This document shows, piece by piece, positions 3,258-54,583 of a stretch of DNA of 64,000 nucleotides. Source of the stretch: a virus. The notes below the pieces were generated by a model that saw only the letters and a list, made by a program, of their open reading frames with translations, ran no database searches and had not been told where the DNA came from. The translations under genes and the position numbers were made by a program. The first letter of the stretch is position 1, and every line of letters starts with the position of its first letter. Where the stretch lies: positions 126,603-190,602 of the IMG/VR virus record IMGVR_UViG_3300027749_000039; one strand, 5' to 3'.

Positions 3258-3327
3258 CAAGAAAAGGTAGATTAAACAAAGAAATTATTTAATTGAAACT
3301 AGTATAGATTAAATAATCGTATTGATG

Positions 3328-3379
3328 GTAAAGGTAAGCGGTTAAGCGGAAGATAGTGGTTCGAATCCACTCCTTTTCA
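3328..3379 (+). ncRNA. tRNA-like unit lacking an anticodon arm
   Basis: Acceptor GTAAAGG/CCTTTTC, perfect T arm AGTGG-TTCGAAT-CCACT, only 20 nt between them. Confidence 0.5.
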
Positions 3380-3390
3380 CGAAATAATAT

Positions 3391-3464
3391 GGTGATTGTA
3401 GCTCAATTGGTAGAGCGCAGGTTTGTGGAACCTGAGGTAGCGGGGTCGGAGCTCGTCAATCACC
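3391..3464 (+). tRNA. tRNA-His(GTG), second copy
   Basis: CAGGT-TTGTGGA-ACCTG; G-1:C73; atypical T loop GTCGGAG. Confidence 0.85.
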
Positions 3465-3469
3465 CAATA

Positions 3470-3542
3470 AGGTAATCAAGCTAACTTGGTAACGTGGGAG
3501 ATTCCAACCCTCCAGTCGTCGGATCGTAACCGGCTGTTCGTG
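3470..3542 (+). pseudogene. Degenerate tRNA-Trp(CCA)-like unit
   Basis: Anticodon loop TTCCAAC, intact T arm and G73, but the 5' acceptor strand does not pair. Confidence 0.45.
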
Positions 3543-3553
3543 CAAAATAAAAT

Positions 3554-3626
3554 ACGGGTATGGTGAAAATGGCTATCATTTTTGTCTCCAAAACAAAAGT
3601 TCCGGATTCGAATTCTGGTGCCCGTG
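3554..3626 (+). tRNA. tRNA-Trp(CCA)
   Basis: TTTGT-CTCCAAA-ACAAA; ACGGGTA/TGCCCGT; G73. Confidence 0.9.
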
Positions 3627-3768: not shown

Positions 3769-4647
3769 ATGGGTGCGAATTCAAAAGAATGGACAGAAAA
3801 GGAAAAAGAAATACTTTTTAAATATTTTCCGAGTATGGGTAGTAATTATTGTTCAGAATTAACAGGAAGAACAAAAAGAGCTTGTCAAGAAATGGCAAAA
3901 AAATTAAAATTGAAGAGAGATTTAGATAAGTATGAAGATAAAGAAAAATTAGAGGAGTTAGTTAAAGGTTGTAAATCATATACAGAATGTGTAATAAAAT
4001 TGGGGTTATCTCCCAGATGTTCTGGTAATTTTCAGACTATCAAAAAATATATCACAATATATAATATAGATATTTCACATTTTGAAAATGGATTTCAAAT
4101 AGGCAACAAACCTCAAAATAAGAAAGAATTATCAGAAGTTTTAATAGAAAACTCTTTTTTTAGCAGAACTCATCTTAAAGAGAGACTATATAAAGAGGAA
4201 TTAAAAAAGAAAGAATGTGAGATATGTGGAATTGGTGAAGATTGGTTTAATGGAACTAAAATAGTCCATATTTTAGACCATATAAATGGTGAGCCTTATG
4301 ATAATCGTCTTGAAAATTTAAGAATCGTTTGTCCTAATTGTAATTCAACATTAGAAACAAATTGTGTTGGGAATAAAGTTAATAAAATATATGATTCTAA
4401 AAAAGATGAATATAAAAGTGAAAAAACACATAAAAAATGTAATTGTGGTAAAATAATTTTGAAAGAAAGTAAATTTTGTTCAGAATGCAATGCCAAAAGT
4501 AAAAGAAAAATTATTAATAGACCAACATTTGAAGAATTAGTTAAGTTAATAGAAGAAAATGGTAATACTGGAACAGGTAAAATATACGGCGTTAGCGAAG
4601 CTGTCATAAGAAAATGGTTAAAACAATATAAAAATAAATTAGTATAG
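3769..4647 (+). mobile_element. HNH homing endonuclease inside tRNA cluster 1
   Basis: CEICG...LDHINGEPYDNRLENLRIVCPNCNS; C-terminal RPTFEEL..YGVSEAVIRKW HTH; N-terminal Myb-like repeat. Confidence 0.9.
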
Positions 4648-4829: not shown

Positions 4830-4840
4830 CAAAATAAAAT

Positions 4841-4918
4841 ACGGGTTTCGTCTAATATTTAAGACACCTCCCGGCAAGGGAGTTAATGTTGTAAGGGTGA
4901 AAATCCTACAACCCGTGC
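4841..4918 (+). pseudogene. tRNA-like unit with unassignable anticodon loop
   Basis: Acceptor ACGGGTT/AACCCGT plus G73 (Trp-like), D stem GTCT/AGAC, loop GGCAAG (6 nt), T loop GTGAAAA. Confidence 0.45.
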
Positions 4919-4933
4919 AAAAAGATTAAAATT

Positions 4934-4969
4934 ATGAAACAATATAAACAGATTAAACAAAAACAATAA
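4934..4969 (+). CDS. Lys-rich mini leader peptide MKQYKQIKQKQ
   Basis: 4 AAA codons in 11, directly upstream of three tRNA-Lys genes; followed by two mutually exclusive hairpins. Confidence 0.6.
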   Translation: MKQYKQIKQKQ

Positions 4970-5001
4970 GTTAGGCTCCTATGGATGCTTAACAAATATA
5001 A

Positions 5002-5244: not shown

Positions 5245-6513
5245 ATGTTAGAAATAAAATTATTTAGGCAAAATAAGGACCTAATTATAGAAGGACTTAA
5301 AAAGAAAAATTTTAAGCAACTTAATTTAGTTGATGAAATTATTAAATTGGATGAAGATTTAAGAAAATTAAAACAGGAAACTGAAAATTTAACTTCTGTT
5401 ATTAATAAAAATAATAGCGAAATTGCAAGATATATTAAAACAGATGCAGTTAAGGTAGAAAATATTAAAACTCATAATATTATTTTAAATGAAAAAATTG
5501 AGGAATTAACTAATATACTAAATCAAACTGAAAACGAGTTATTGGATAATTTAATTCAATTACCAAATCTTCCAAATCAAATTGTAGAAATAGACAATGG
5601 TAATGAAGCAACTAATGGTAATGTTATTATAAGAGAAAACTTAACTCAGTGTACACAAGGTAAACCTCATTGGGAAGTAATTAAAGATTTAAATATAGTT
5701 AGTTTTGAACTAGGAACTAAAATTACTGGTGCTGGGTTTCCTGTTTATATCGGAAAAGGCGCAAGATTACAAAGAGCTTTAATTCAATATTTTTTAGATT
5801 ATAATACTAATGCTGGTTATACAGAATATAATATACCATTAATGGTTAATTATGATTCTGCATATGGTACAGGACAACTCCCTGATAAAGAAGGTCAAAT
5901 GTATTATGCTGAAAAGGATAATTTATACTTAATTCCAACAGCAGAAGTTCCTTTAACTAATATCTTTAGAGATGAAATAGTTAATTTGCCCATAAAAATG
6001 ACAGGACATAGTGCTTGTTTTAGAAGAGAAGCTGGCGCACATGGTAAAGAAGTAAGAGGGTTAAATCGAGTTCATCAATTTGAAAAAGTTGAAATAGTTC
6101 AATTAGTTCAACCTGATAAAAGTTATGAAGTATTGGAAGAAATGGTTTTACATGTTGAGAACTTGATAAAAAGCTTAGAATTACCATATAGAATACTTAA
6201 ATTAAGTGGCACAGATATGAGTTTTGCATCTGCTTTAACTTATGACTTTGAAGTATATAGTGCGGCTCAAGACAGATGGTTAGAAGTAAGTTCTGTGAGT
6301 AATTTTGAAACTTTCCAATCTAATCGTATGAAAATTAGATTTAAAGAAGATAAAAAGAACAAATTAGTTCATACTTTAAATGGAAGTTCTTTAGCATTAC
6401 CAAGAATAATGGCTTGCTTATTAGAAAATAATCAAACACATGAAGGTATAAAAATACCAGAAGTATTAATACCGTATTACGGTGACAAATTTTTAACAAA
6501 TGGAAAATTATAA
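5245..6513 (+). CDS. serS: Seryl-tRNA synthetase
   Basis: N-terminal coiled coil, LIPTAEVPL, CFRREAG..RGLNRVHQFEKVE, HTLNGSSLALPR. Confidence 0.97.
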   Translation: MLEIKLFRQNKDLIIEGLKKKNFKQLNLVDEIIKLDEDLRKLKQETENLTSVINKNNSEIARYIKTDAVKVENIKTHNIILNEKIEELTNILNQTENELLDNLIQLPNLPNQIVEIDNGNEATNGNVIIRENLTQCTQGKPHWEVIKDLNIVSFELGTKITGAGFPVYIGKGARLQRALIQYFLDYNTNAGYTEYNIPLMVNYDSAYGTGQLPDKEGQMYYAEKDNLYLIPTAEVPLTNIFRDEIVNLPIKMTGHSACFRREAGAHGKEVRGLNRVHQFEKVEIVQLVQPDKSYEVLEEMVLHVENLIKSLELPYRILKLSGTDMSFASALTYDFEVYSAAQDRWLEVSSVSNFETFQSNRMKIRFKEDKKNKLVHTLNGSSLALPRIMACLLENNQTHEGIKIPEVLIPYYGDKFLTNGKL

Positions 6514-6745
6514 AAAATTAATAGAGAAATATAAAGTTGAAATAGTAGATTATATTATTTCTTCAAAAGACCAATTAGAAGAATACCGTAAAAAGTATTT
6601 AGGCGCAAATGGAATTATAAAACAAGTTTATAATCAATTAAAACAAGTTCCTGCTGAAAAAAGAAAACAAGCAGGAGAATTGTTAAGAGGATTAAAAGAT
6701 TGTGCTGAAAATAAATATGAAAATTCTTTTGTTAATTCAAAATAA
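6500..6745 (+). CDS. Stand-alone PheRS alpha-subunit N-terminal coiled-coil domain
   Basis: LEEYRKKYLGANGIIKQVYNQLKQVPAEKRKQAGELL matches the PheS N-terminal pattern (..RvkYLGkkG..l..lp.eeR..aG..lN); no catalytic domain follows. Confidence 0.7.
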   Translation: MENYKKLIEKYKVEIVDYIISSKDQLEEYRKKYLGANGIIKQVYNQLKQVPAEKRKQAGELLRGLKDCAENKYENSFVNSK

Positions 6746-6758
6746 TTTCGTATCTTTG
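6728..6758 (+). promoter_or_regulatory. Bacteroidota-type promoter for the Ser/Arg tRNA cluster
   Basis: TTTG-N19-TATCTTTG. Confidence 0.8.
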
Positions 6759-6807
6759 TAAAAGAAAATAAACAAAAAAGCATTTTAACAATATAATATA
6801 TACAATT

Positions 6808-6864
6808 ATGAAAACAATATCATCGTCTAGTCGCAGTAGTTTAACTTTGGAAATCCAGAGATGA
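6808..6864 (+). CDS. Attenuator leader peptide L2: MKTISSSSRSSLTLEIQR
   Basis: TCA TCG TCT AGT CGC AGT AGT run upstream of Ser(GCT), Arg(ACG), a Ser-like unit and Ser(GGA). Confidence 0.85.
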   Translation: MKTISSSSRSSLTLEIQR

Positions 6865-6883
6865 TAGTGTATGTATATACTTG

Positions 6884-6915
6884 AAGCCTTGGATTGTAAA
6901 ATTCAAGGCTTTTTT
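6884..6915 (+). terminator. Intrinsic terminator of attenuator L2
   Basis: AAGCCTTGGATT-GTAA-AATTCAAGGCTT-TTTT. Confidence 0.85.
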
Positions 6916-6921
6916 AATTTT

Positions 6922-7012
6922 GGTGAGTTACTCAAGTGGTCAAAGAGGCTTGTTTGCTAAACAAGTAGGACGGTAAAACGTTGCGTGGGTTCGAACCCCA
7001 CACTCACCGCCA
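6922..7012 (+). tRNA. tRNA-Ser(GCT), CCA encoded
   Basis: CTTGT-TTGCTAA-ACAAG, long variable arm, G73. Confidence 0.92.
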
Positions 7013-7062
7013 AAATATACAGATAATTGCGGGTTCGAGACCCGTTCTGGATACAAAAATAT

Positions 7063-7136
7063 GGTCTCATCGTTCAATGGATTTAGGATACTTGGCTACG
7101 AACTAAGAGATTGGGGTTCGAATCCCTATGAGACTA
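7063..7136 (+). tRNA. tRNA-Arg(ACG)
   Basis: CTTGG-CTACGAA-CTAAG. Confidence 0.9.
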
Positions 7137-7142
7137 CTAATA

Positions 7143-7230
7143 GGAAAGTTGGCAGAGCGGTTTAATGCGCTGGCACTGAAGCCGGTGACTGGCAAAAGCC
7201 GGTCCGTGAGTTCGAATCTCATACTTTCTT
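7143..7230 (+). pseudogene. Ser-type tRNA with a 6-nt anticodon loop (ACTGAA) and U73
   Basis: Ser-like body with long variable arm; the loop is one nt short of canonical CTTGAAA. Confidence 0.6.
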
Positions 7231-7234
7231 ATAT

Positions 7235-7324
7235 GGAGAAGTAAAACGAAATTGGTATCGTCCCTGATTGGAAATCAGGTTATCGGGTCAAACTGGTATG
7301 TAGGTTCGAGTCCTATTTTCTCCG
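7235..7324 (+). tRNA. tRNA-Ser(GGA)
   Basis: CCTGA-TTGGAAA-TCAGG, long variable arm, G73. Confidence 0.9.
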
Positions 7325-7368
7325 CAATGTTTCAAAAAAAGAAATATACTTAATAATACACAATTAAA

Positions 7369-17272: not shown

Positions 17273-17908
17273 TTGCATCACACAATTTATAAAATAACCA
17301 ATTTAATAAATGGCAAAATTTATATTGGAAAACACTCAACAAATGATATTAAAGATAACTACTACGGTAGTGGGAAATTAATTAAAAGTGCTATAGAAAA
17401 ATATGGTATTATTAATTTCACAAAAGAAATTTTGTTTAATTTTCAATCAGAGGAAGAAGCTTATGCCAAGGAAAAGGAAATAGTAAATGAAAGTTTCATA
17501 AAAAGAAAAGATGTTTATAACCTTATAATAGGGGGTGATACATTTGAAGCTATTAATTCCAATTTAGAATTAAGAAAAGCTAAAAATAAGAAAGCTGCAT
17601 TAATTATGAATTCTGTAAATTGGAATAATCCAGAATTTAGAAAAAGGCAAACTGATAAAATGATATTACAAAATAAAAAATTGCATAAAGAAGGAATTCT
17701 TAAAAGTGTTGATTGGACCGGAAAGAAACATAAGGATGAAAGCAAAGAGAAAATGAGGGAAAAGGCAAAATTGAGAATAGGTGATAAAAACTCTTCATTT
17801 GGAACTTGTTGGATATATAATGAAAATGAAAGTAAGAAAATAAAAAAAGAAGATTTAGAAAACTACTTATCTATTGGATGGATAAAAGGTAGAAAAATTA
17901 AATTTTAA
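17273..17908 (+). mobile_element. GIY-YIG homing endonuclease (Seg-like, NUMOD3) in tRNA cluster 3; TTG start
   Basis: TIYKITNLINGKIYIGKH..YYGSGKLIKSAIEKYG; TGKKHKDESKEKM. Confidence 0.9.
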
Positions 17909-17911
17909 TAA

Positions 17912-17994
17912 GCGAGTATAGTATAACGGAGGCGAAAGCCGTATTATGCTGGTCTTCCAAACCGGATATGAGAGTTCGATTCTCTCTACTCGCT
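17912..17994 (+). tRNA. tRNA-Gly(TCC) with an extra hairpin inserted in the D loop
   Basis: CTGGT-CTTCCAA-ACCGG; D loop contains GGC-GAAA-GCC. Confidence 0.82.
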
Positions 17995-18858: not shown

Positions 18859-19638
18859 ATGGACGATAACGTCCGCTCCTATGACGAAACAACTCTGTTT
18901 TGTCCTGCAGGAATGTCCCAATACAAATCCTTATTTAAGGATATTAACCACAAGGGAACAATAAGTAATATACAATCTTGCCTTCGTTTAAACGATATGG
19001 AAGAAATAGGTGATGGGAGCCACCTATTGTATTTTAACATGATTGGATTATTCTCGTTTAGAGAAATGACTATACAAGAAGCTATTGACTTTTGGATGGA
19101 ATTTCTCTATAAAATCAATTGTATTCCTGATTACATTACTATTCATCCTGATAAACCTGAATGGCGAGATTTCTATTCTAATTATAATGTTGAAATACGT
19201 TATGATGAAGGGTGTATATGGAGTGACGGAGGTATCGGTGGCTACTGCACTGAATTTTACAAGGATGATATTGAAATAGGTAATATAGTTAATCCGTTAG
19301 GTACTTGTATTGACGCAGGGTGGGGTTTGGAACGTATAGAAATGGTTTTATATAATGAGAGAAAAACAAAAGAAGAAACCTTAATTAATACAATTATGAA
19401 AATGATTGAAAGCGGATTTACACCTACTTACAATAAACAAGGTTCTCTTTTGCGAAAACTTTTAAGAATTTGTTATTTAGAAAAAATAGAAGTTCCGCAT
19501 CAATTTTACCAAGATGAAATTTTGAGACAACAAAAAATTATAGAAAAATATAATAGAATGAAAGAGAAACCTAAGTTTAAAAATATGTCTAAGGAGTTTT
19601 GGTTTAATACTCTTGGTATTGATATAGATTTAATGTGA
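18859..19638 (+). CDS. alaS: Minimal alanyl-tRNA synthetase (catalytic domain only); true start may lie up to ~28 codons upstream
   Basis: DETTLFCPAGMSQYK, QSCLRLND.EEIGDGSHL.YFNMIGLFSF, IEIGNIV, IDAGWGLERI; no editing or C-Ala domain. Confidence 0.85.
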   Translation: MDDNVRSYDETTLFCPAGMSQYKSLFKDINHKGTISNIQSCLRLNDMEEIGDGSHLLYFNMIGLFSFREMTIQEAIDFWMEFLYKINCIPDYITIHPDKPEWRDFYSNYNVEIRYDEGCIWSDGGIGGYCTEFYKDDIEIGNIVNPLGTCIDAGWGLERIEMVLYNERKTKEETLINTIMKMIESGFTPTYNKQGSLLRKLLRICYLEKIEVPHQFYQDEILRQQKIIEKYNRMKEKPKFKNMSKEFWFNTLGIDIDLM

Positions 19639-31626: not shown

Positions 31627-31677
31627 CAATCGTTATTAATTTTTATTAGGGAGTTCGGTTTATATAATATATAATTT

Positions 31678-32484
31678 ATGAGACATAAACAAACAGAACA
31701 AACTAAAAAGAAGTTATCAGAAATAAGAAAAAAATGGTTAGCAGATAATCCAGAAAAACATCCATGGAAAAGAAAAGATAAATTCTTATCTAAGCCTTGT
31801 GAATTTTTCAAAAAGAAATTATTGGAAAATAATTTAACTTTTTCGGAAGAACAAAACTTACTTGAAGGAAGAGCATATTCGGTAGATGTAGTTTTTTATG
31901 ATAAAATGATTGGATTTAAAATAAATGGAAATCAACATTATAATTCAGATAAAACTCTTAAAGATTATTATAAAAAAAGGAAAGAAGAGATTGAAATTTT
32001 AGGATGGAAATTATATGATATACATTATACAAAAGTTTATAATGAAAAATTTATAGAGGAAATAATAAAATTCATAAAAGAGCAAAAGGAAATTCCAAAT
32101 TTTAATTTTGAATTTTTTATAAAAAAGGTTAAAAAAATATGTAAAGATTGTGGTAAAGAAATATCATATAATAGCATAGAAAGATGTTTAAAATGTCATA
32201 ATATATCCAGAAGAACAGAAAAATATGAAGTTAATTTAAAATATAAAATAGGTGCTAATAAAAAAGAAAAATTTATAAAAAATTGTAATTGTGGTGAAAT
32301 AATATCCATAAATTCAAATAATTGTAAGGAATGTTTTGATAAAATACAAAGAAAAATAGTTGATAGACCAAGTTTAGAAATTTTATTAGAAGAGGTTAAA
32401 GATATAGGATATAGTGCGGTTGGTAGAAAATATGGAGTTAGTGATAATTCTATAAGAAAGTGGATAAAAAATTATCAAAAATAA
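31678..32484 (+). mobile_element. DUF559/Vsr-like homing endonuclease with C-terminal HTH, in tRNA cluster 4
   Basis: YSVDVVF..IGFKINGNQHY..R....EILGW; RPSLEILLEEV..VGRKYGVSDNSIRKW. Confidence 0.7.
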
Positions 32485-34697: not shown

Positions 34698-35531
34698 ATG
34701 GAAAATAAAAAATTTATTGAAATATGCCAAACAGCCGTAAGTATGGCTGAGGCAGCTAGAATTATAGGAATTGGATTTAATTCTTTTAAGAAAAAAGCAT
34801 TAATATTAAATTGTTATAAAACTAATCAAAATTGGAGAAAAGGTAAAACTGTTTTAAATGATGATAGAATAGAAAGTAAACATACTTTATTTTGTGAAAA
34901 TTCTTCCGCAAGAAGAGAATATATTAAAGGTTTAATTATTAAACATAATTTAATTGAATATAAATGTTTTGATTGTGGATTAAAAAATGAATGGAATGGG
35001 AAAATTTTAAACTTACAGTTAGACCATATAAATGGTGTAAAAAATGATAATAGACTTGAAAATTTAAGATTTATGTGCCCTAATTGTCATTCACAAACAG
35101 AAACATGGTGTAAAAGTAAAGGTAATTCAATAAATAATTTAGATATAGAAATCTTAATTAATACTATAAATAAGTCATTTTCTATGACTAAATTAATTGA
35201 TAAATTAGGAATCTATGATACACAAAATAATAGAAAGAAAATCAAAAAAATAATGATAGAAAATAATCTATCTTTTGAATTTGATAAACAGGAAAAGAAT
35301 AAAATAAATAGTTGTAAGTGTGGTAAATCTATTAAAAAATCAAGTAAAATGTGTTCTAAATGTTGGCAGATAGAACAAAGAAAAGTTAATAGACCTACAT
35401 ATGAGCAGTTAAAAAAAGAAGTAGAAGAAATTGGATATTCAGCAACAGGTAGAAAATATAATGTTTCTGATAATTGCATAAGAAAATGGTTAAAAGCATA
35501 TGTACCCCAATTGGCAGAGGGACACCGTTAA
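34698..35531 (+). mobile_element. HNH homing endonuclease in tRNA cluster 5
   Basis: LQLDHINGVKNDNRLENLRFMCPNCHSQT; C-terminal TGRKYNVSDNCIRKW HTH; 3' end overlaps tRNA-Leu(AAG). Confidence 0.9.
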
Positions 35532-36305: not shown

Positions 36306-37496
36306 ATGAAAAAAAAACAAGGATGGATTAAATCCATAAGACAATCCAAAGGATTAATATTTGTAGCAGTTACAGACGGAGCAAAAGATTTCCAAGTAAC
36401 AATAGTAGAAGCCGAATGTAAAATATACGGCGAACTAAAAGTAGGAGCTTCTTTTGAAGCACAAGGTAAAGATTCAACAACCCCAAAAGGATTATTTGAA
36501 TTTAAAGCATCTGAGTTTAAGATAATAGGTAGTTCCGATGACAGCTACCCTATACAGCCCAAGTCCCATGGTATGGATTTTCTACGTTCTATTTTAGAAT
36601 ATAGAGGAAAAACTAAACAATTTCAAGCAATTTGGAAAATTAGGCATCATTTAACACAGGCTATACATCAATTTTTTGATAGTGAAGGATTTTATCTCTA
36701 CCAAATTCCTATCATTATAGACAGCGATTGTGAGGGTGCCGGTGAAACTTTCCAAGTAAAAACTGAATGGTTAGATAGAGTTTTAACCGTATCAGGTCAG
36801 CTACATGGTGAAGTGGGTGCCATGAGTCTTGGTAAAATTTATTCATTTAGTCCATCTTTTAGAGCAGAAAAATCAGCCACCAAAAAACACTTAAGTGAGT
36901 TTTGGCATCTTGAACCAGAAATAGGATGGTATAGCATGGAAGATACTATGAGATTAGCAGAAAAATCTATAAAATTCTTTATCACATATGTATTAGAAAA
37001 ATGTGAATATGAATTTAAACAATTAGGTATAACTACTGAACATCTAACAGATGTTATAGAAAAAGAATGGAAAACTATTAAATACGAAGAAATAGTTAAA
37101 CTATTTGGTGTTAAATATGGTGAGGATATAAACTCGGAAACAGAACAGAAAATTGTAACACATTTTGGTTGCCCTGTGTTTATAACACATTATCCTGAAT
37201 CATTAAAGCCCTTTTACATGAAGAAAATAGGAGGTGTTGCTTTTTGTTTTGATTTGATTTTTGAATCAATAGGGGAATTAATTGGAGGTTCTGAGCGAGA
37301 AGATTCTTATGATAAATTAAAACAGTCTATGATAGATTCTGGTTTAGATTTAGATAAAATGGATTGGTATTTAAACACCAGAAAACACGGTTCAATTCCA
37401 CATAGTGGATATGGAATGGGATTTGAACGTCTGTTGATGTTTATTACAAAAGTTCCAAAAATACATGATGTTATACCTTTTCCTGTATCTTATTAA
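36306..37496 (+). CDS. asnS: Asparaginyl-tRNA synthetase
   Basis: OB fold, SDCEGAGETF, LTVSGQL, FRAEKS.T.KHLSEFWHLEPE, GGSERE, PHSGYGMGFER. Confidence 0.95.
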   Translation: MKKKQGWIKSIRQSKGLIFVAVTDGAKDFQVTIVEAECKIYGELKVGASFEAQGKDSTTPKGLFEFKASEFKIIGSSDDSYPIQPKSHGMDFLRSILEYRGKTKQFQAIWKIRHHLTQAIHQFFDSEGFYLYQIPIIIDSDCEGAGETFQVKTEWLDRVLTVSGQLHGEVGAMSLGKIYSFSPSFRAEKSATKKHLSEFWHLEPEIGWYSMEDTMRLAEKSIKFFITYVLEKCEYEFKQLGITTEHLTDVIEKEWKTIKYEEIVKLFGVKYGEDINSETEQKIVTHFGCPVFITHYPESLKPFYMKKIGGVAFCFDLIFESIGELIGGSEREDSYDKLKQSMIDSGLDLDKMDWYLNTRKHGSIPHSGYGMGFERLLMFITKVPKIHDVIPFPVSY

Positions 37497-45037: not shown

Positions 45038-45967
45038 ATGGATATAATTAAAATTATAAATGAAAGTTTTTCCATTAATGATTTAGCCAAAAAATTATAT
45101 GGTTATTCTAATGGCAAGAGCAATAAAAAAGCAATAGAAGTTTTAAAACAAAACGGATTTGATATATCTTTTTTTGACGGAAAAAGTAAAAATAGAAAAT
45201 ATCAAAAAATAAAAATTATTTGTCCTATTTGTTTTGTGGAATTTGAAACAACTGAAAATGGTAAAAAAACATGTTCTTCTTCATGTTCTAATTCTTATTT
45301 TCAACACGGGAAAAATAATCCTGATTTTGATCAAGAAAAATATGAGGAAAGATATAAAAAAGTATCTAATACATTAAAAACTAATATTCCTTGGAATAAA
45401 GGCAAAAATGATAAGGCAAAAATAAAAACATGTCTAAATTGTAAAATTGAATTTGAACCTAAAACACACACACAGAAATATTGTTGCAAAAAATGCCAAT
45501 TTTCATGTAAAGAGTATAGAAAATTATTAAGTGACAATGTTAAAGAAAGAATAAAAAATGGAACACATAAAGGTTGGCAATCAAGAAATATTGAGAGTTA
45601 TCCTGAAAAATTCTTTAAAAAAGTATTAAAAAATAATGGTATTGAATATATACCAAATAAAACAATAATAAAAAAAGACTATAATATAGAAGGCAATGGT
45701 AATTATTTTTTAGATTTTTATATAAAAGAAGGAAATATAGATTTAGAAATAGACGGCAAGCAACATGATTATAGGGTCGAACATGATAATGAACGAGATA
45801 ACAATTTATCAAAGCATTTCAACATTTATAGAATAAAATGGCAGTCAATAAATAGCGAAACAGGAAAACAATATATAAAAAAAGAAATTAAAAAATTTAT
45901 AAAATATTATAACAAAATGAAAAACTTAACTTTACAACAACAGCAACAAATGATTAAACTAGATTGA
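45038..45967 (+). mobile_element. DUF559/Vsr-like homing endonuclease with Zn fingers; last 16 codons are the Gln leader
   Basis: YFLDFY...LEIDGKQHD..R....YRIKW; CPIC, CxxxC motifs. Confidence 0.8.
45917..45967 (+). CDS. Attenuator leader peptide L7: MKNLTLQQQQQMIKLD (in frame with the endonuclease ORF)
   Basis: CAA CAA CAG CAA CAA run, typical MKN start; terminator and three tRNA-Gln follow. Confidence 0.85.
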   Translation: MKNLTLQQQQQMIKLD

Positions 45968-46279: not shown

Positions 46280-47869
46280 ATGAATTTTATAGAAGAAAAA
46301 ATTATTGAAAAAGTAAATCGTGGAATTAAGCCGGTGCTTCGCTTTCCGCCCGAACCAAACGGAAAATCATTGCACTTGGGGCATGCCAAGTCAATGTGTT
46401 TAAATTTTGGATTGGCAGAGAAATATAATGGTGAATGTAATTTAAGGTTTGATGATACAAATCCTTCTGCTGAAAAAGCGGAATATGTAGATGCAATCAT
46501 TAATGATATAAAGTGGCTTGGATTTACTCCAACACGTATAGAACACACATCTAATTATTTTGAAATAATATTTGAATATGCGGTTAGATTAATTGAAAAA
46601 GGGTTAGCATATGTTGATGATTCTACATCAGAAGAAATTGCTAGTATGAAAGGAACTCTTAATGCACCTGGTATTGATTCACCATATAAATCAAGAACTA
46701 TTTCCGAAAACTTAGATTTATTTTATCGTATGAGAAATGGTGAATTTAATAATGGTAAAAAAACATTAAGATTAAATATTGACATGACTTCACCTAATAT
46801 GATATTAAGAGATCCAGTTATATATCGGATTATGCATGAAACACATCATAATACAGGTGATAAATGGTGTATATATCCTTTATATGATTTTGCGCATCCG
46901 ATATCTGATTATATTGAAAGTATATCTGATTCATTATGTACCTTGGAGTTTGAAGTTCATAGACCATTGTATAATTGGATATTAGAAAATTTAGATTTAA
47001 AATATCCGTTACCTGAGGAAACTGAGTTTGCTCGTTTAAATGTTTCTTATAATGTAATGAGTAAGAGGAAGTTAAAAACATTAGTAGATGAAAATTATGT
47101 AACAGATTGGGATGATCCAAGATTATTAACATTATCTGGATTAAGAAGAAAAGGATATACACCGACATCAATTAAATCATTTTGTGAAACAGTTGGTTAC
47201 ACTAAAAGAGATTCTTTGATTGATTTTAGACTATTAGAAGAGTGTTTACGTTCTGACTTAAATAAGTTAGCATTAAGATATATGGTCGTTTTAAATCCAC
47301 TTAAAATTACTATTATTAATTATAGTGGTGAAGAAAAATGTGTTATTGAAAATAATCCTGAAAATGTAGAAGATGGAATAAGAGAAGTTATTTTTACTAA
47401 GGAATTATTTATTGAAGCAGATGATTTTAGAGAAATCGCTAATAACAAATATCATAGATTAAAAATAGGTGGTGAAGTTAGATTAAAGGGAGCTTATATT
47501 ATAAAAGCAGAAGAAGTAGTAAAAGATGAATTAGGTAATATAATTGAAGTTAAATGTATTTATGATCCTACTACTAAATCAGGTGAATCTGATAGAAAAG
47601 TAAAGGGCACTATACATTGGGTATCTACTTCTTATAATAAAGAAATTATTGTAAATGAGTATGAAAATTTATTTACAGAAGAAATACCAGAAACTTTTGA
47701 TATTATCAAAAGTTTAATAATAAGTAAACCTGCAATAGCAGAATTAGCAATAGAAAATACTGTTATTAACAAAGCAGTTCAATTTATGAGGAATGGCTAC
47801 TTTACTTTAGATAAAGATGGTAGTTTTATAAAAACAGTGTCATTAAAAGATGGATTTAAAGAAAAATAA
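46280..47869 (+). CDS. glnS: Glutaminyl-tRNA synthetase
   Basis: RFPPEPNG.SLHLGHAKS, LRFDDTNP, SLCTLEF, VMSKRKL, beta-barrel KVKGTIHWVS. Confidence 0.96.
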   Translation: MNFIEEKIIEKVNRGIKPVLRFPPEPNGKSLHLGHAKSMCLNFGLAEKYNGECNLRFDDTNPSAEKAEYVDAIINDIKWLGFTPTRIEHTSNYFEIIFEYAVRLIEKGLAYVDDSTSEEIASMKGTLNAPGIDSPYKSRTISENLDLFYRMRNGEFNNGKKTLRLNIDMTSPNMILRDPVIYRIMHETHHNTGDKWCIYPLYDFAHPISDYIESISDSLCTLEFEVHRPLYNWILENLDLKYPLPEETEFARLNVSYNVMSKRKLKTLVDENYVTDWDDPRLLTLSGLRRKGYTPTSIKSFCETVGYTKRDSLIDFRLLEECLRSDLNKLALRYMVVLNPLKITIINYSGEEKCVIENNPENVEDGIREVIFTKELFIEADDFREIANNKYHRLKIGGEVRLKGAYIIKAEEVVKDELGNIIEVKCIYDPTTKSGESDRKVKGTIHWVSTSYNKEIIVNEYENLFTEEIPETFDIIKSLIISKPAIAELAIENTVINKAVQFMRNGYFTLDKDGSFIKTVSLKDGFKEK

Positions 47870-52129: not shown

Positions 52130-52684
52130 ATGATTTTATATACCTTACAAGAGGAATTTAAGTTTCTTGAGTTTCAAGAAACAGGTGTGTTAAAAGCACA
52201 TCCTGACATTATATGCGATGATAGTTTCAATAGAGCCTATGAGTGGATAGAAAGTAAGATGAATACATTACTACCTGTATCTGACATGTTATGTAAACAT
52301 CCTATGTGGGCATGGTATAAATATGGTGGTAAAAGAAAACCAGATTTACGAAAAAAACACCTTAACAAATGTGATATATTCTATCGAATTGAGATTGAAA
52401 TTGATGATAGCAAAGTTCTTTTAACAGATTTTGATAATTGGCATTTAGTTTTAAATGCTGATAAAAGGGATATTAAAGAAGAACATACTATATTTGATAT
52501 AGAAGAAGGTGATGATATATCATCTTATATTAAGGAAGGTTTCTTTGTCGAAGACAATAAATTAAAGTATGATTGGAATAATATAATTTTAGATAAAAAT
52601 TCTAATAAGAAATATATTCAAGCTACATTTTGGTATGTTACATTTGATCAAGTAAAATCTTATACAAAACATAAAAGCCGCTAA
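52130..52684 (+). CDS. DUF3841-like protein
   Basis: AYEW..KM...HPMWAW..KPDLR..VLLTDFDNWHLVLN..IQATFW. Confidence 0.7.
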   Translation: MILYTLQEEFKFLEFQETGVLKAHPDIICDDSFNRAYEWIESKMNTLLPVSDMLCKHPMWAWYKYGGKRKPDLRKKHLNKCDIFYRIEIEIDDSKVLLTDFDNWHLVLNADKRDIKEEHTIFDIEEGDDISSYIKEGFFVEDNKLKYDWNNIILDKNSNKKYIQATFWYVTFDQVKSYTKHKSR

Positions 52685-52701
52685 AATTAGCGGCTTTTAT
52701 G

Positions 52702-53292
52702 TTATATTCTAACGTTTGCTGTGACTGTTGAACTAACACCTACTCCATTTGAAGCATTAACGCTTACTGAGTAAGTTGAACCGGGTGAACAGTTTGCTAA
52801 TGTTAATGTATATGTGTTATTTAAAGTTCTTATATTAGTATTTTGATAAGGATTATATTGATTACTTCCAGCATCTTGCGTATTATATATTGGTGAACTA
52901 TCTTTAGTAGACGTTACGTTATATCTCGAAGAACCAGTAGCTGCTGTCCATGTGTAAGTTATATTAAAAGAACCAACTCCATTCGATGCTGATATGCCTG
53001 TAATTGTTATATTGGAAGGTGTTGCAAAATAAAAACTTCTATTAGTCCAAGAAGATTCAAATGCACCCGGTATGTTATTTGACCAATCAACATATTGGAC
53101 ATTACCTATATAATACTGTTTTTTTATTGAAAAAGCATTTGTAGTATCGGAAGTTCCGGGTGTAGAATATCCATAATACGATATTGTAGTTCCGATTCCC
53201 AATGAACCACCAGCACCTGCGGCAGTACCAGACGCATCGTATCTGGTATATAGTGTATTTAAATCAAAATAAATTTGTGTTTGTGAAGGCAT
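52702..53292 (-). CDS. Putative virion protein with C-terminal fibronectin type III-like domain
   Basis: Ser/Thr-rich; TPSNIT..TWT..YNV..PGSTYSVSVNASNGVG. Confidence 0.6.
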   Translation of the reverse strand: MPSQTQIYFDLNTLYTRYDASGTAAGAGGSLGIGTTISYYGYSTPGTSDTTNAFSIKKQYYIGNVQYVDWSNNIPGAFESSWTNRSFYFATPSNITITGISASNGVGSFNITYTWTAATGSSRYNVTSTKDSSPIYNTQDAGSNQYNPYQNTNIRTLNNTYTLTLANCSPGSTYSVSVNASNGVGVSSTVTANVRI

Positions 53293-54369: not shown

Positions 54370-54583
54370 TAATTTTCCATTCCCATTTAAGGGATTATGC
54401 AAAAGTTTAGCAATAAAACGGTTTAGTCAGCAACATTTCAAAACTGCTATTAGATTGAGTGCTAAATTATCCGCAAAAGAATTTGCCACTAAAGAAGAAA
54501 GAACTAGAGTAGAGCATCTTATATTTGTGCATCTTAATGCCGCTAGAAGAGCTTTTAAATTAAAAAAGAAAAAGAAAAAATGA
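54362..54583 (+). CDS. Hypothetical basic protein
   Basis: Coupled ORF. Confidence 0.5.
   Translation: MIDNFPFPFKGLCKSLAIKRFSQQHFKTAIRLSAKLSAKEFATKEERTRVEHLIFVHLNAARRAFKLKKKKKK

Follow-up and report, generated by a model that had tools for sequence, protein, structure and literature searches.

Ribosome-mediated attenuation is, as a class, textbook knowledge (PMC1183508). In the enterobacterial leaders trpL, hisL, pheL, leuL and thrL and in that of ilvGMEDA, regulatory codons are clustered in a short translated ORF ahead of a Rho-independent terminator, and the position of the ribosome picks the alternative pairing in which the 3' portion of the leader binds the terminator's 5' arm. The multivalent leader of ilvGMEDA samples more than one amino acid. 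Classically, the genes under such control are those of amino-acid biosynthesis or synthetases. The E. coli pheST attenuator (pheM leader) acts on a component of the translation apparatus via the decoding of cognate codons, its target being a synthetase protein gene and its input a single amino acid. T-box riboswitches gate a terminator by the charging of a specific tRNA upstream of translation-supply genes, for which they bind the tRNA directly and are not translated. Transcription of tRNA genes is usually described as promoter-controlled by growth rate and the stringent response. To our knowledge, there is no case in which tRNA genes are themselves gated by a ribosome that stalls at their cognate codons, and literature searches revealed no attenuation control of tRNA genes by leader codons.

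The locus described here, L2, has in common with the enterobacterial leaders a short ORF containing consecutive regulatory codons and a Rho-independent terminator, and similarly to ilvGMEDA it samples more than one amino acid. An alternative pairing governed by the ribosome is proposed for L2 as well. While the enterobacterial attenuators regulate biosynthetic enzymes, L2 would regulate four tRNAs with codons matched to the individual anticodons. It also differs from them in belonging to a phage, in its Bacteroidota-type promoter, and in having neither a Shine-Dalgarno sequence nor a match to an Rfam leader family. Compared to pheST, the putative targets are tRNA genes, joined by synthetase genes in other cassettes of the same DNA; compared to T-boxes, L2 has neither a T-box match nor a T-box architecture. 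L2 is thus best read as trp-style ribosome-mediated attenuation applied to tRNA genes. The control class is known, and the novelty of L2 would lie in its target, because the regulated genes are tRNAs, outside the classical scope.

L2 is located in the final 64 kb of a 190.6-kb virus contig found in freshwater metagenomes. This whole stretch of 64,000 nucleotides is referred to as the window. It has a G+C content of 26–34% and harbours at least 45 tRNA genes, all of them on the plus strand and largely grouped by amino acid. The L2 region consists of the following features:

6728–6758, plus strand: Bacteroidota-type promoter, TTTG-N19-TATCTTTG (-33 and -7 elements)
6808–6864, plus strand: leader ORF L2, MKTISSSSRSSLTLEIQR, 18 codons and TGA (ATG at 6808, TGA at 6862–6864)
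6820–6840, plus strand: regulatory codon block TCA TCG TCT AGT CGC AGT AGT, codons 5–11 of L2
6845–6850, plus strand: segment 1, CUUUGG, pairing with CCAGAG at 6855–6860 in the centroid of 6808–6899
6852–6858, plus strand: segment 2, putative antiterminator strand AAUCCAG, forming the best duplex of the leader with the terminator 5' arm
6883–6915, plus strand: intrinsic terminator (5' arm 6883–6895, GUAA loop 6896–6899, 3' arm 6900–6912, T6 run 6910–6915)
6889–6895, plus strand: segment 3, UUGGAUU, in the terminator 5' arm
6922–7012, plus strand: tRNA-Ser(GCT), reading AGT and AGC (ARAGORN; Rfam 57.6 bits)
7063–7137, plus strand: tRNA-Arg(ACG), reading CGT, CGC and CGA if A34 is converted to inosine (ARAGORN; Rfam 52 bits)
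7142–7231, plus strand: class II Ser-like tRNA containing UGA, with an abnormal anticodon loop (37.1 bits)
7238–7325, plus strand: tRNA-Ser(GGA), reading TCT and TCC (ARAGORN; Rfam 37.1 bits)

The promoter motif TTTG-N18-21-TAnnTTTG was detected 22 times in the window against an expectation of 3.5 ± 1.9, a number reached in none of 100 shuffles. Copies of it are located upstream of leaders L2, L3, L4, L5 and L6 and of the Met tRNAs. The sequence at 6728–6758 is of the type of Bacteroides and Flavobacterium promoters. Two Met tRNAs are preceded by a tandem pair of such promoters (2658–2830) and have neither leader nor terminator, which fits the need for Met-tRNA at the start of every leader. 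The first of these promoters is followed by a 5'-UTR-like stretch resembling that of L2 and L6, in which ATACG replaces the ATG. Two truncated synthetase-like ORFs were also observed in the window: an 81-aa stand-alone ORF (6500–6745) that corresponds to the N-terminal domain of PheRS alpha only, and a 259-aa ORF (18859–19638) matching just the first part of the catalytic domain of AlaRS.

The first-pass annotation had proposed that seven consecutive codons, ahead of Ser and Arg tRNAs, sample both Ser codon boxes and CGC, and that the locus is an attenuator. All seven codons were found in place (6820–6840) within the 18-codon ORF, and the four tRNAs, Ser(GCT), Arg(ACG), Ser-like and Ser(GGA), were all located behind it (6922–7325). 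The attenuator reading gains support from the leader ORF, the matched codons, the terminator in place and the recurrence of the design. Applying standard wobble rules (G34 reading C/U, U34 reading A/G, A34 as inosine reading U/C/A), each codon of the block is readable by one of the four downstream tRNAs, and the block contains at least one test codon for each of them. Reading of CGC by tRNA-Arg(ACG) through inosine at position 34 is established bacterial biology and is presumed for the phage tRNA.

The significance of this run was evaluated against the codon usage of the phage. The nine codons read by the four tRNAs make up 8.0% of the codons in its long ORFs, giving a probability of about 1e-6 for a run of seven array-readable codons within 17 codons. 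A survey of the 2,564 ATG-started ORFs of 10–45 codons on both strands of the 190.6-kb contig revealed a run of five or more such codons in L2 only, the runner-up having four. The block includes two of the rarest codons of the genome, CGC with a share of 0.10% and TCG with 0.30%. The match between codons and tRNAs is confined to the ATG frame of L2. Chance is excluded as the origin of the codon run. Leader and terminator are identical on contigs from two other freshwater runs, so that L2 is not an assembly artefact, and four freshwater DNA runs displayed no variation there. No RNA run was listed as containing this DNA. Because no Shine-Dalgarno sequence was found at the leader, we infer its translation from the sequence; such an absence is expected in Bacteroidota.

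One of the four tRNAs deserves separate mention. The anticodon loop of the Ser-like tRNA (7142–7231) has 6 nt according to Infernal (ACUGAA, between the stem strands CUGGC and GCCGG, i.e. one base short) and 8 nt with a four-base anticodon CUGA according to ARAGORN. Related phages have a normal Ser(TGA) in their Ser/Arg arrays, as compared with it by eye. The Ser-like tRNA might thus be a copy in decay or else decode in an unusual way, and this member of the L2 array may not take part in decoding. Other tRNA-like remnants or odd tRNAs lie between annotated tRNAs at 7013–7062, 3261–3380, 3466–3550 and 4838–4920. ARAGORN at default settings misses a Gly(UCC) tRNA at 17912–17994, whose D region contains an insert of 14 nt.

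The terminator of L2 is a 13-bp stem of -16.8 kcal/mol (z = -5.2), a stability equalled in none of 200 shuffles. It begins 18 nt after the stop codon of the leader, and 9 nt separate its stem from tRNA-Ser(GCT). Across the seven sequences of the L2 family this stem is 100% paired, with two compensatory columns.

The antiterminator is the weakest point of the L2 case. The pairing of AATCCAG with TTGGATT, noted in the initial reading of the sequence, is present: it amounts to 7 bp including one G-U pair (-6.6 kcal/mol) and is the best duplex between the L2 leader and the 5' arm. Its energy is no better than that obtained with shuffled leaders (fraction 0.55), and it is the weakest antiterminator among the seven cassettes of the window. 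In its favour are the position, the way the ribosome-masked RNA folds, and compensatory changes in the orthologues. AATCCAG is located 4–12 nt before the stop codon. When the RNA 5' of 6845 is removed, which mimics a ribosome stalled on the codon block, the pairing of 6852–6858 with 6889–6895 becomes both the MFE and the centroid structure (-10.5 kcal/mol, z = -1.4). The orthologues carry an equivalent 7-bp helix in the versions GGTTCGA/TCGAACT, GATTCGA/TCGAATC or AGTTCGA/TCGAACT. Over the family, pairing in this helix reaches 95.8%, while slid controls do not exceed 54%, and two columns display A-U/G-C exchanges. A further hairpin of the L2 family links the AGT-CGC-TCN codons to the segment immediately 5' of the antiterminator and has 94% pairing. 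These covariation scores derive from a small sample of seven sequences and were reached by 7–13 of 500 shuffles (10 of 500 for the antiterminator). The register of the antiterminator between the window and the orthologues depends on the alignment, A1 being in register and A2 (MAFFT) out of it. Since A2 misregisters, the share of the window in the covariation argument rests on A1 and on the pairing tables; in the direct pairing table the version of the window pairs at 7 of 7 positions.

As a whole, the free L2 leader has an ill-defined fold (MFE frequency 0.005, z = +0.97), and therefore the helices of the full-length MFE structure were discounted as evidence. In the centroid of the free RNA, CUUUGG pairs with CCAGAG and so occupies part of the antiterminator strand, which completes the classical four-segment layout. 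According to this model, the segment 1 hairpin is a possible anti-antiterminator or pause hairpin.

Taken together, L2 is probably a ribosome-mediated transcription attenuator gating a four-gene Ser/Arg tRNA array in a freshwater huge phage of a Bacteroidota-type host. From this layout we infer which of the alternative folds is chosen and in which direction L2 responds. Transcription would begin at the promoter at 6728–6758, and a ribosome would translate the 18-codon leader. With fast decoding of the seven Ser/Arg codons, the ribosome would reach the UGA (6862–6864) and mask AAUCCAG; alternatively, once the ribosome is gone, CUUUGG would pair with CCAGAG. With AAUCCAG either masked or tied up, the 13-bp terminator could form, and RNA polymerase would halt at the T run, leaving tRNA-Ser(GCT), which starts 9 nt further on, untranscribed. 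With a shortage of charged Ser or Arg tRNAs for these codons, the ribosome would stall within 6820–6840 with its footprint masking CUUUGG; AAUCCAG would then be able to pair with UUGGAUU, the terminator would be prevented and the four tRNA genes transcribed. Such a switch must be kinetic, as the terminator (-16.8 kcal/mol) is far more stable than the antiterminator. The net effect would be a negative feedback on decoding capacity, the tRNA set being made when decoding of its codons is slow.

L2 is not alone in the window, where seven cassettes with a common order were identified: a short leader starting with MK, a U-tailed hairpin 18–27 nt past its stop codon, and tRNAs 6–29 nt past the hairpin. 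In addition to L2, these are:

L1, 3030: leader with H, F, S, K, W; then His, His, Trp, Phe, Ser(TGA) and Lys tRNAs and SerRS
L3, 16060: leader GAYEAGYAYEG; then Tyr, Glu, Ala and Gly tRNAs
L4, 31207: leader with N, I, R, T, L, V, C; then tRNAs for exactly these
L5, 34432: leader with L, M, N; then three Leu tRNAs, one Met tRNA and an Asn/Asp-type synthetase
L6, 44484: leader with P, Q, D; then three Asp tRNAs and Pro(TGG)
L7, 45917: leader QQQQQ; then three Gln tRNAs and GlnRS

Synthetase genes belonging to cassettes are located at 5245–6513 (SerRS), 36306–37496 (Asn/Asp-type) and 46280–47869 (GlnRS).

A few peculiarities of these cassettes were recorded. L7 (ATG at 45917) coincides, in the same frame, with the final 16 codons of an ORF of 309 aa (45038–45967) that has a DUF559 endonuclease-like domain; L7 has no promoter motif of its own, and the inserted mobile gene reads into the leader. 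Further ORFs interrupt tRNA arrays at 3769–4647, 17273–17908 and 34698–35531, where they separate a leader from some of its tRNAs. Pfam gave weak HNH hits below threshold for 3769–4647 and a weak GIY-YIG hit for 17273–17908. An annotation gap was noticed inside a tRNA array at about 31650–32480. L5 ends in TAG, and a tRNA with the amber-reading anticodon CUA was detected by ARAGORN outside the window (contig positions 54412–54485); given this tRNA, a reassignment of the stop codon late in infection could alter the reading of L5. A Lys/Gln-rich mini-ORF (MKQYKQIKQKQ, 4934–5001) lies directly ahead of three Lys tRNAs, and the hairpin behind it lacks a U tail. A like arrangement, with MKTKRKYKR, was observed in phage LR756502. 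The Lys mini-ORF may work differently from the terminated cassettes.

Considered together, the cassettes would form a bank of codon-speed meters, a proposal that we regard as somewhat favoured: each mini-ORF would gauge the decoding of one codon set and turn on only the matching tRNA array and, in some cassettes, the matching synthetase, providing tRNA homeostasis on demand at the level of isoacceptors during infection, with L2 as the Ser/Arg channel. Such a supply on demand would possibly make up for host tRNAs lost to degradation or cleavage by the defences of the host. If true, the classic principle of attenuation would be widened from amino-acid supply to decoding capacity, and a reason would be given for the sorting of tRNAs by amino acid in these huge phages. 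A 2026 review on giant viruses and large phages calls the role of large-phage tRNAs, in translation versus immune evasion, 'unknown', and mentions neither attenuation nor leaders (PMC13359090). The cassettes would make that question testable, since each of them would be a compact and portable sensor for which both the input, one codon class, and the output are predicted.

The same device could also report on amino-acid starvation, synthetase status or infection stage instead of tRNA abundance, and would then be a classical starvation attenuator that merely stands in front of tRNA genes. A stalled ribosome reports on charged tRNA, which depends on amino acid, synthetase and tRNA alike, and the presence of synthetase genes in several cassettes fits this signal. 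We nevertheless hold it to be unlikely, considering that extra tRNA gives no relief of amino-acid starvation and that a match at the level of anticodons, including the rare CGC and TCG, fits isoacceptor supply better. The two signals are not mutually exclusive.

The spacing within the cassettes bears on whether the response could be inverse. In a pyrBI-like scheme, a ribosome following closely behind RNA polymerase would block the terminator, and fast decoding would turn the tRNA genes on. Suppression of terminators by coupled translation is a known mechanism (see also PMC5021804). In all seven cassettes, however, the stop codon precedes the hairpin by 18–27 nt, and because of this gap a ribosome at or before the stop codon cannot cover the stem. 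The scheme would also leave the conserved complementarity between the 3' end of the leader and the 5' arm without a role, and it would yield a runaway positive feedback; it is therefore very improbable. That complementarity is specific to each cassette: when the 3' parts of the leaders in the window were paired with the 5' arms of the terminators, the cognate duplexes were matched or beaten in 2 of 5,040 permutations, and the best duplex always ends within a range from 33 nt ahead of the end of the stop codon to 6 nt beyond it.

The correspondence of leader and array was examined by scoring the fraction of the codons in each leader that is readable by each array. Among the 40,320 permutations of the eight leaders of the window and their arrays, the true pairing was the single best one. 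Frames +1 and +2 carried no such signal, with 19,434 and 31,166 of the 40,320 permutations doing equally well.

The system is also present in three uncultured phages of 634–642 kb (LR756502, LR745206 and LR756504) and in four IMG/VR contigs, with the same design as in the window, i.e. promoter, leader starting with MK, U-tailed hairpin and tRNAs sorted by amino acid. The true pairing of leaders and arrays was again the best of all permutations in LR756502 (1 of 40,320) and in LR756504 (1 of 120), and the cognate duplexes of leader and arm in the relatives ranked at 1 of 120 and 106 of 5,040 permutations.

Among the relatives, the strongest point is the covariation of leader composition with the grouping of tRNAs, as judged from these sequences. 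In LR756502, the Gly and Ala tRNAs are found with Ile, away from Tyr and Glu, and the leaders are split likewise into ISVGVIAIGAGSV and GYTGYEGAYSE. In LR756504, the leader IAMIIRMRIIR is located ahead of an array of Arg, Ile and Met tRNAs, KKQQYKQYQPQYK ahead of one with Tyr, Gln and Lys, and IAIVEIAVIGGAEEGV ahead of one with Glu, Ala, Ile, Val and Gly. For the Leu/Ser/Cys array of the same phage, a leader made of L, S and C was predicted before the sequence was read, and MKAMILSLCLSLSLSLQKL... (LSLCLSLSLSL) was found.

Orthologues of L2 itself were identified in LR756502, LR745206 and the four IMG/VR contigs (n = 6). Their leaders, MKTTIKNTSSRSRSSKSGEVRLYS, MKTINNTSKSSSRSSSMSEIRLYS, MKTTIKNTSSSSSRSSKLSEVRLYS, MKNINTSKSSSSRSSRMSEIRLYS, MKTINNTSKSSSRSSMTSEIRLYS and MKTTIKNTSSSSSRSSKSSEVRLYS, are Ser-rich with at least one Arg codon, and in every case a terminator comes next, with Arg(ACG) and Ser tRNAs behind it. 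The codons AGT CGC are invariant in all seven members of the family. LR756502 encodes two Arg tRNAs (ACG, TCG) and has three CGN codons in its leader, compared to one and one for L2 of the window.

The search for relatives also produced candidates that were set aside. From 11 IMG/VR matches to the L2-family pattern, four are the true orthologues and seven are chance matches inside an unrelated gene. The neighbouring SerRS protein, used as query in IMG/VR, and the exact T-arm pattern of tRNA-Arg retrieved no relatives, and a looser tRNA-Arg pattern retrieved four unrelated phages with mostly unsorted tRNAs. Matches of Lak-B phages to 6691–6819 reflect promoter similarity only. In two tRNA regions of Prevotella phage Lak-B2, which have similar promoters and unsorted tRNAs, the same pipeline revealed no such leaders or sorted arrays, showing that it does not find leaders everywhere.

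These comparisons weigh on the idea that the hairpin merely terminates or insulates neighbouring operons, or serves as a signal for tRNA processing, next to a short untranslated ORF present by coincidence. Between the SerRS operon upstream and L2 there is no terminator, so that the L2 hairpin could also end the SerRS transcript, and the antiterminator of L2 is not significant on its own. A coincidence has to be reconciled, though, with a frame-specific codon run that is unique among 2,564 short ORFs, with permutation tests that hold in three phages, with leader compositions that track the grouping of tRNAs, and with a dedicated promoter between the upstream gene and the leader, which makes it extremely improbable. 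A direct, T-box-like RNA sensor of tRNA in place of a translated leader is hardly credible: T-box leaders likewise gate terminators by tRNA charging, but neither a T-box nor any other cis-regulatory family was detected at L2, permissive thresholds included, the leader, with about 110 nt between its ATG and the tRNA, falls far short of the length of a T-box, and the signal consists of an in-frame codon run after an ATG. The Rfam searches behind this gave no match to the Trp, His, Leu, Thr and Phe leader families at L2, either at gathering thresholds or at E <= 1, and none to the T-box model anywhere in the window. A Phe_leader match at 52610–52703 (30.5 bits against a cut-off of 55) was rejected as a terminator at the end of a gene.

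A comparable arrangement was noticed in an unrelated phage with 43% G+C (L015, IMGVR_UViG_3300011444_000060). At 3385–3571, a short ORF ending in ...MQNKSLSLLSLSYSLEEDWGY and a terminator precede Leu, Leu, Leu, Tyr and Glu tRNAs. On the basis of this case, the leader design may extend beyond AT-rich huge phages.
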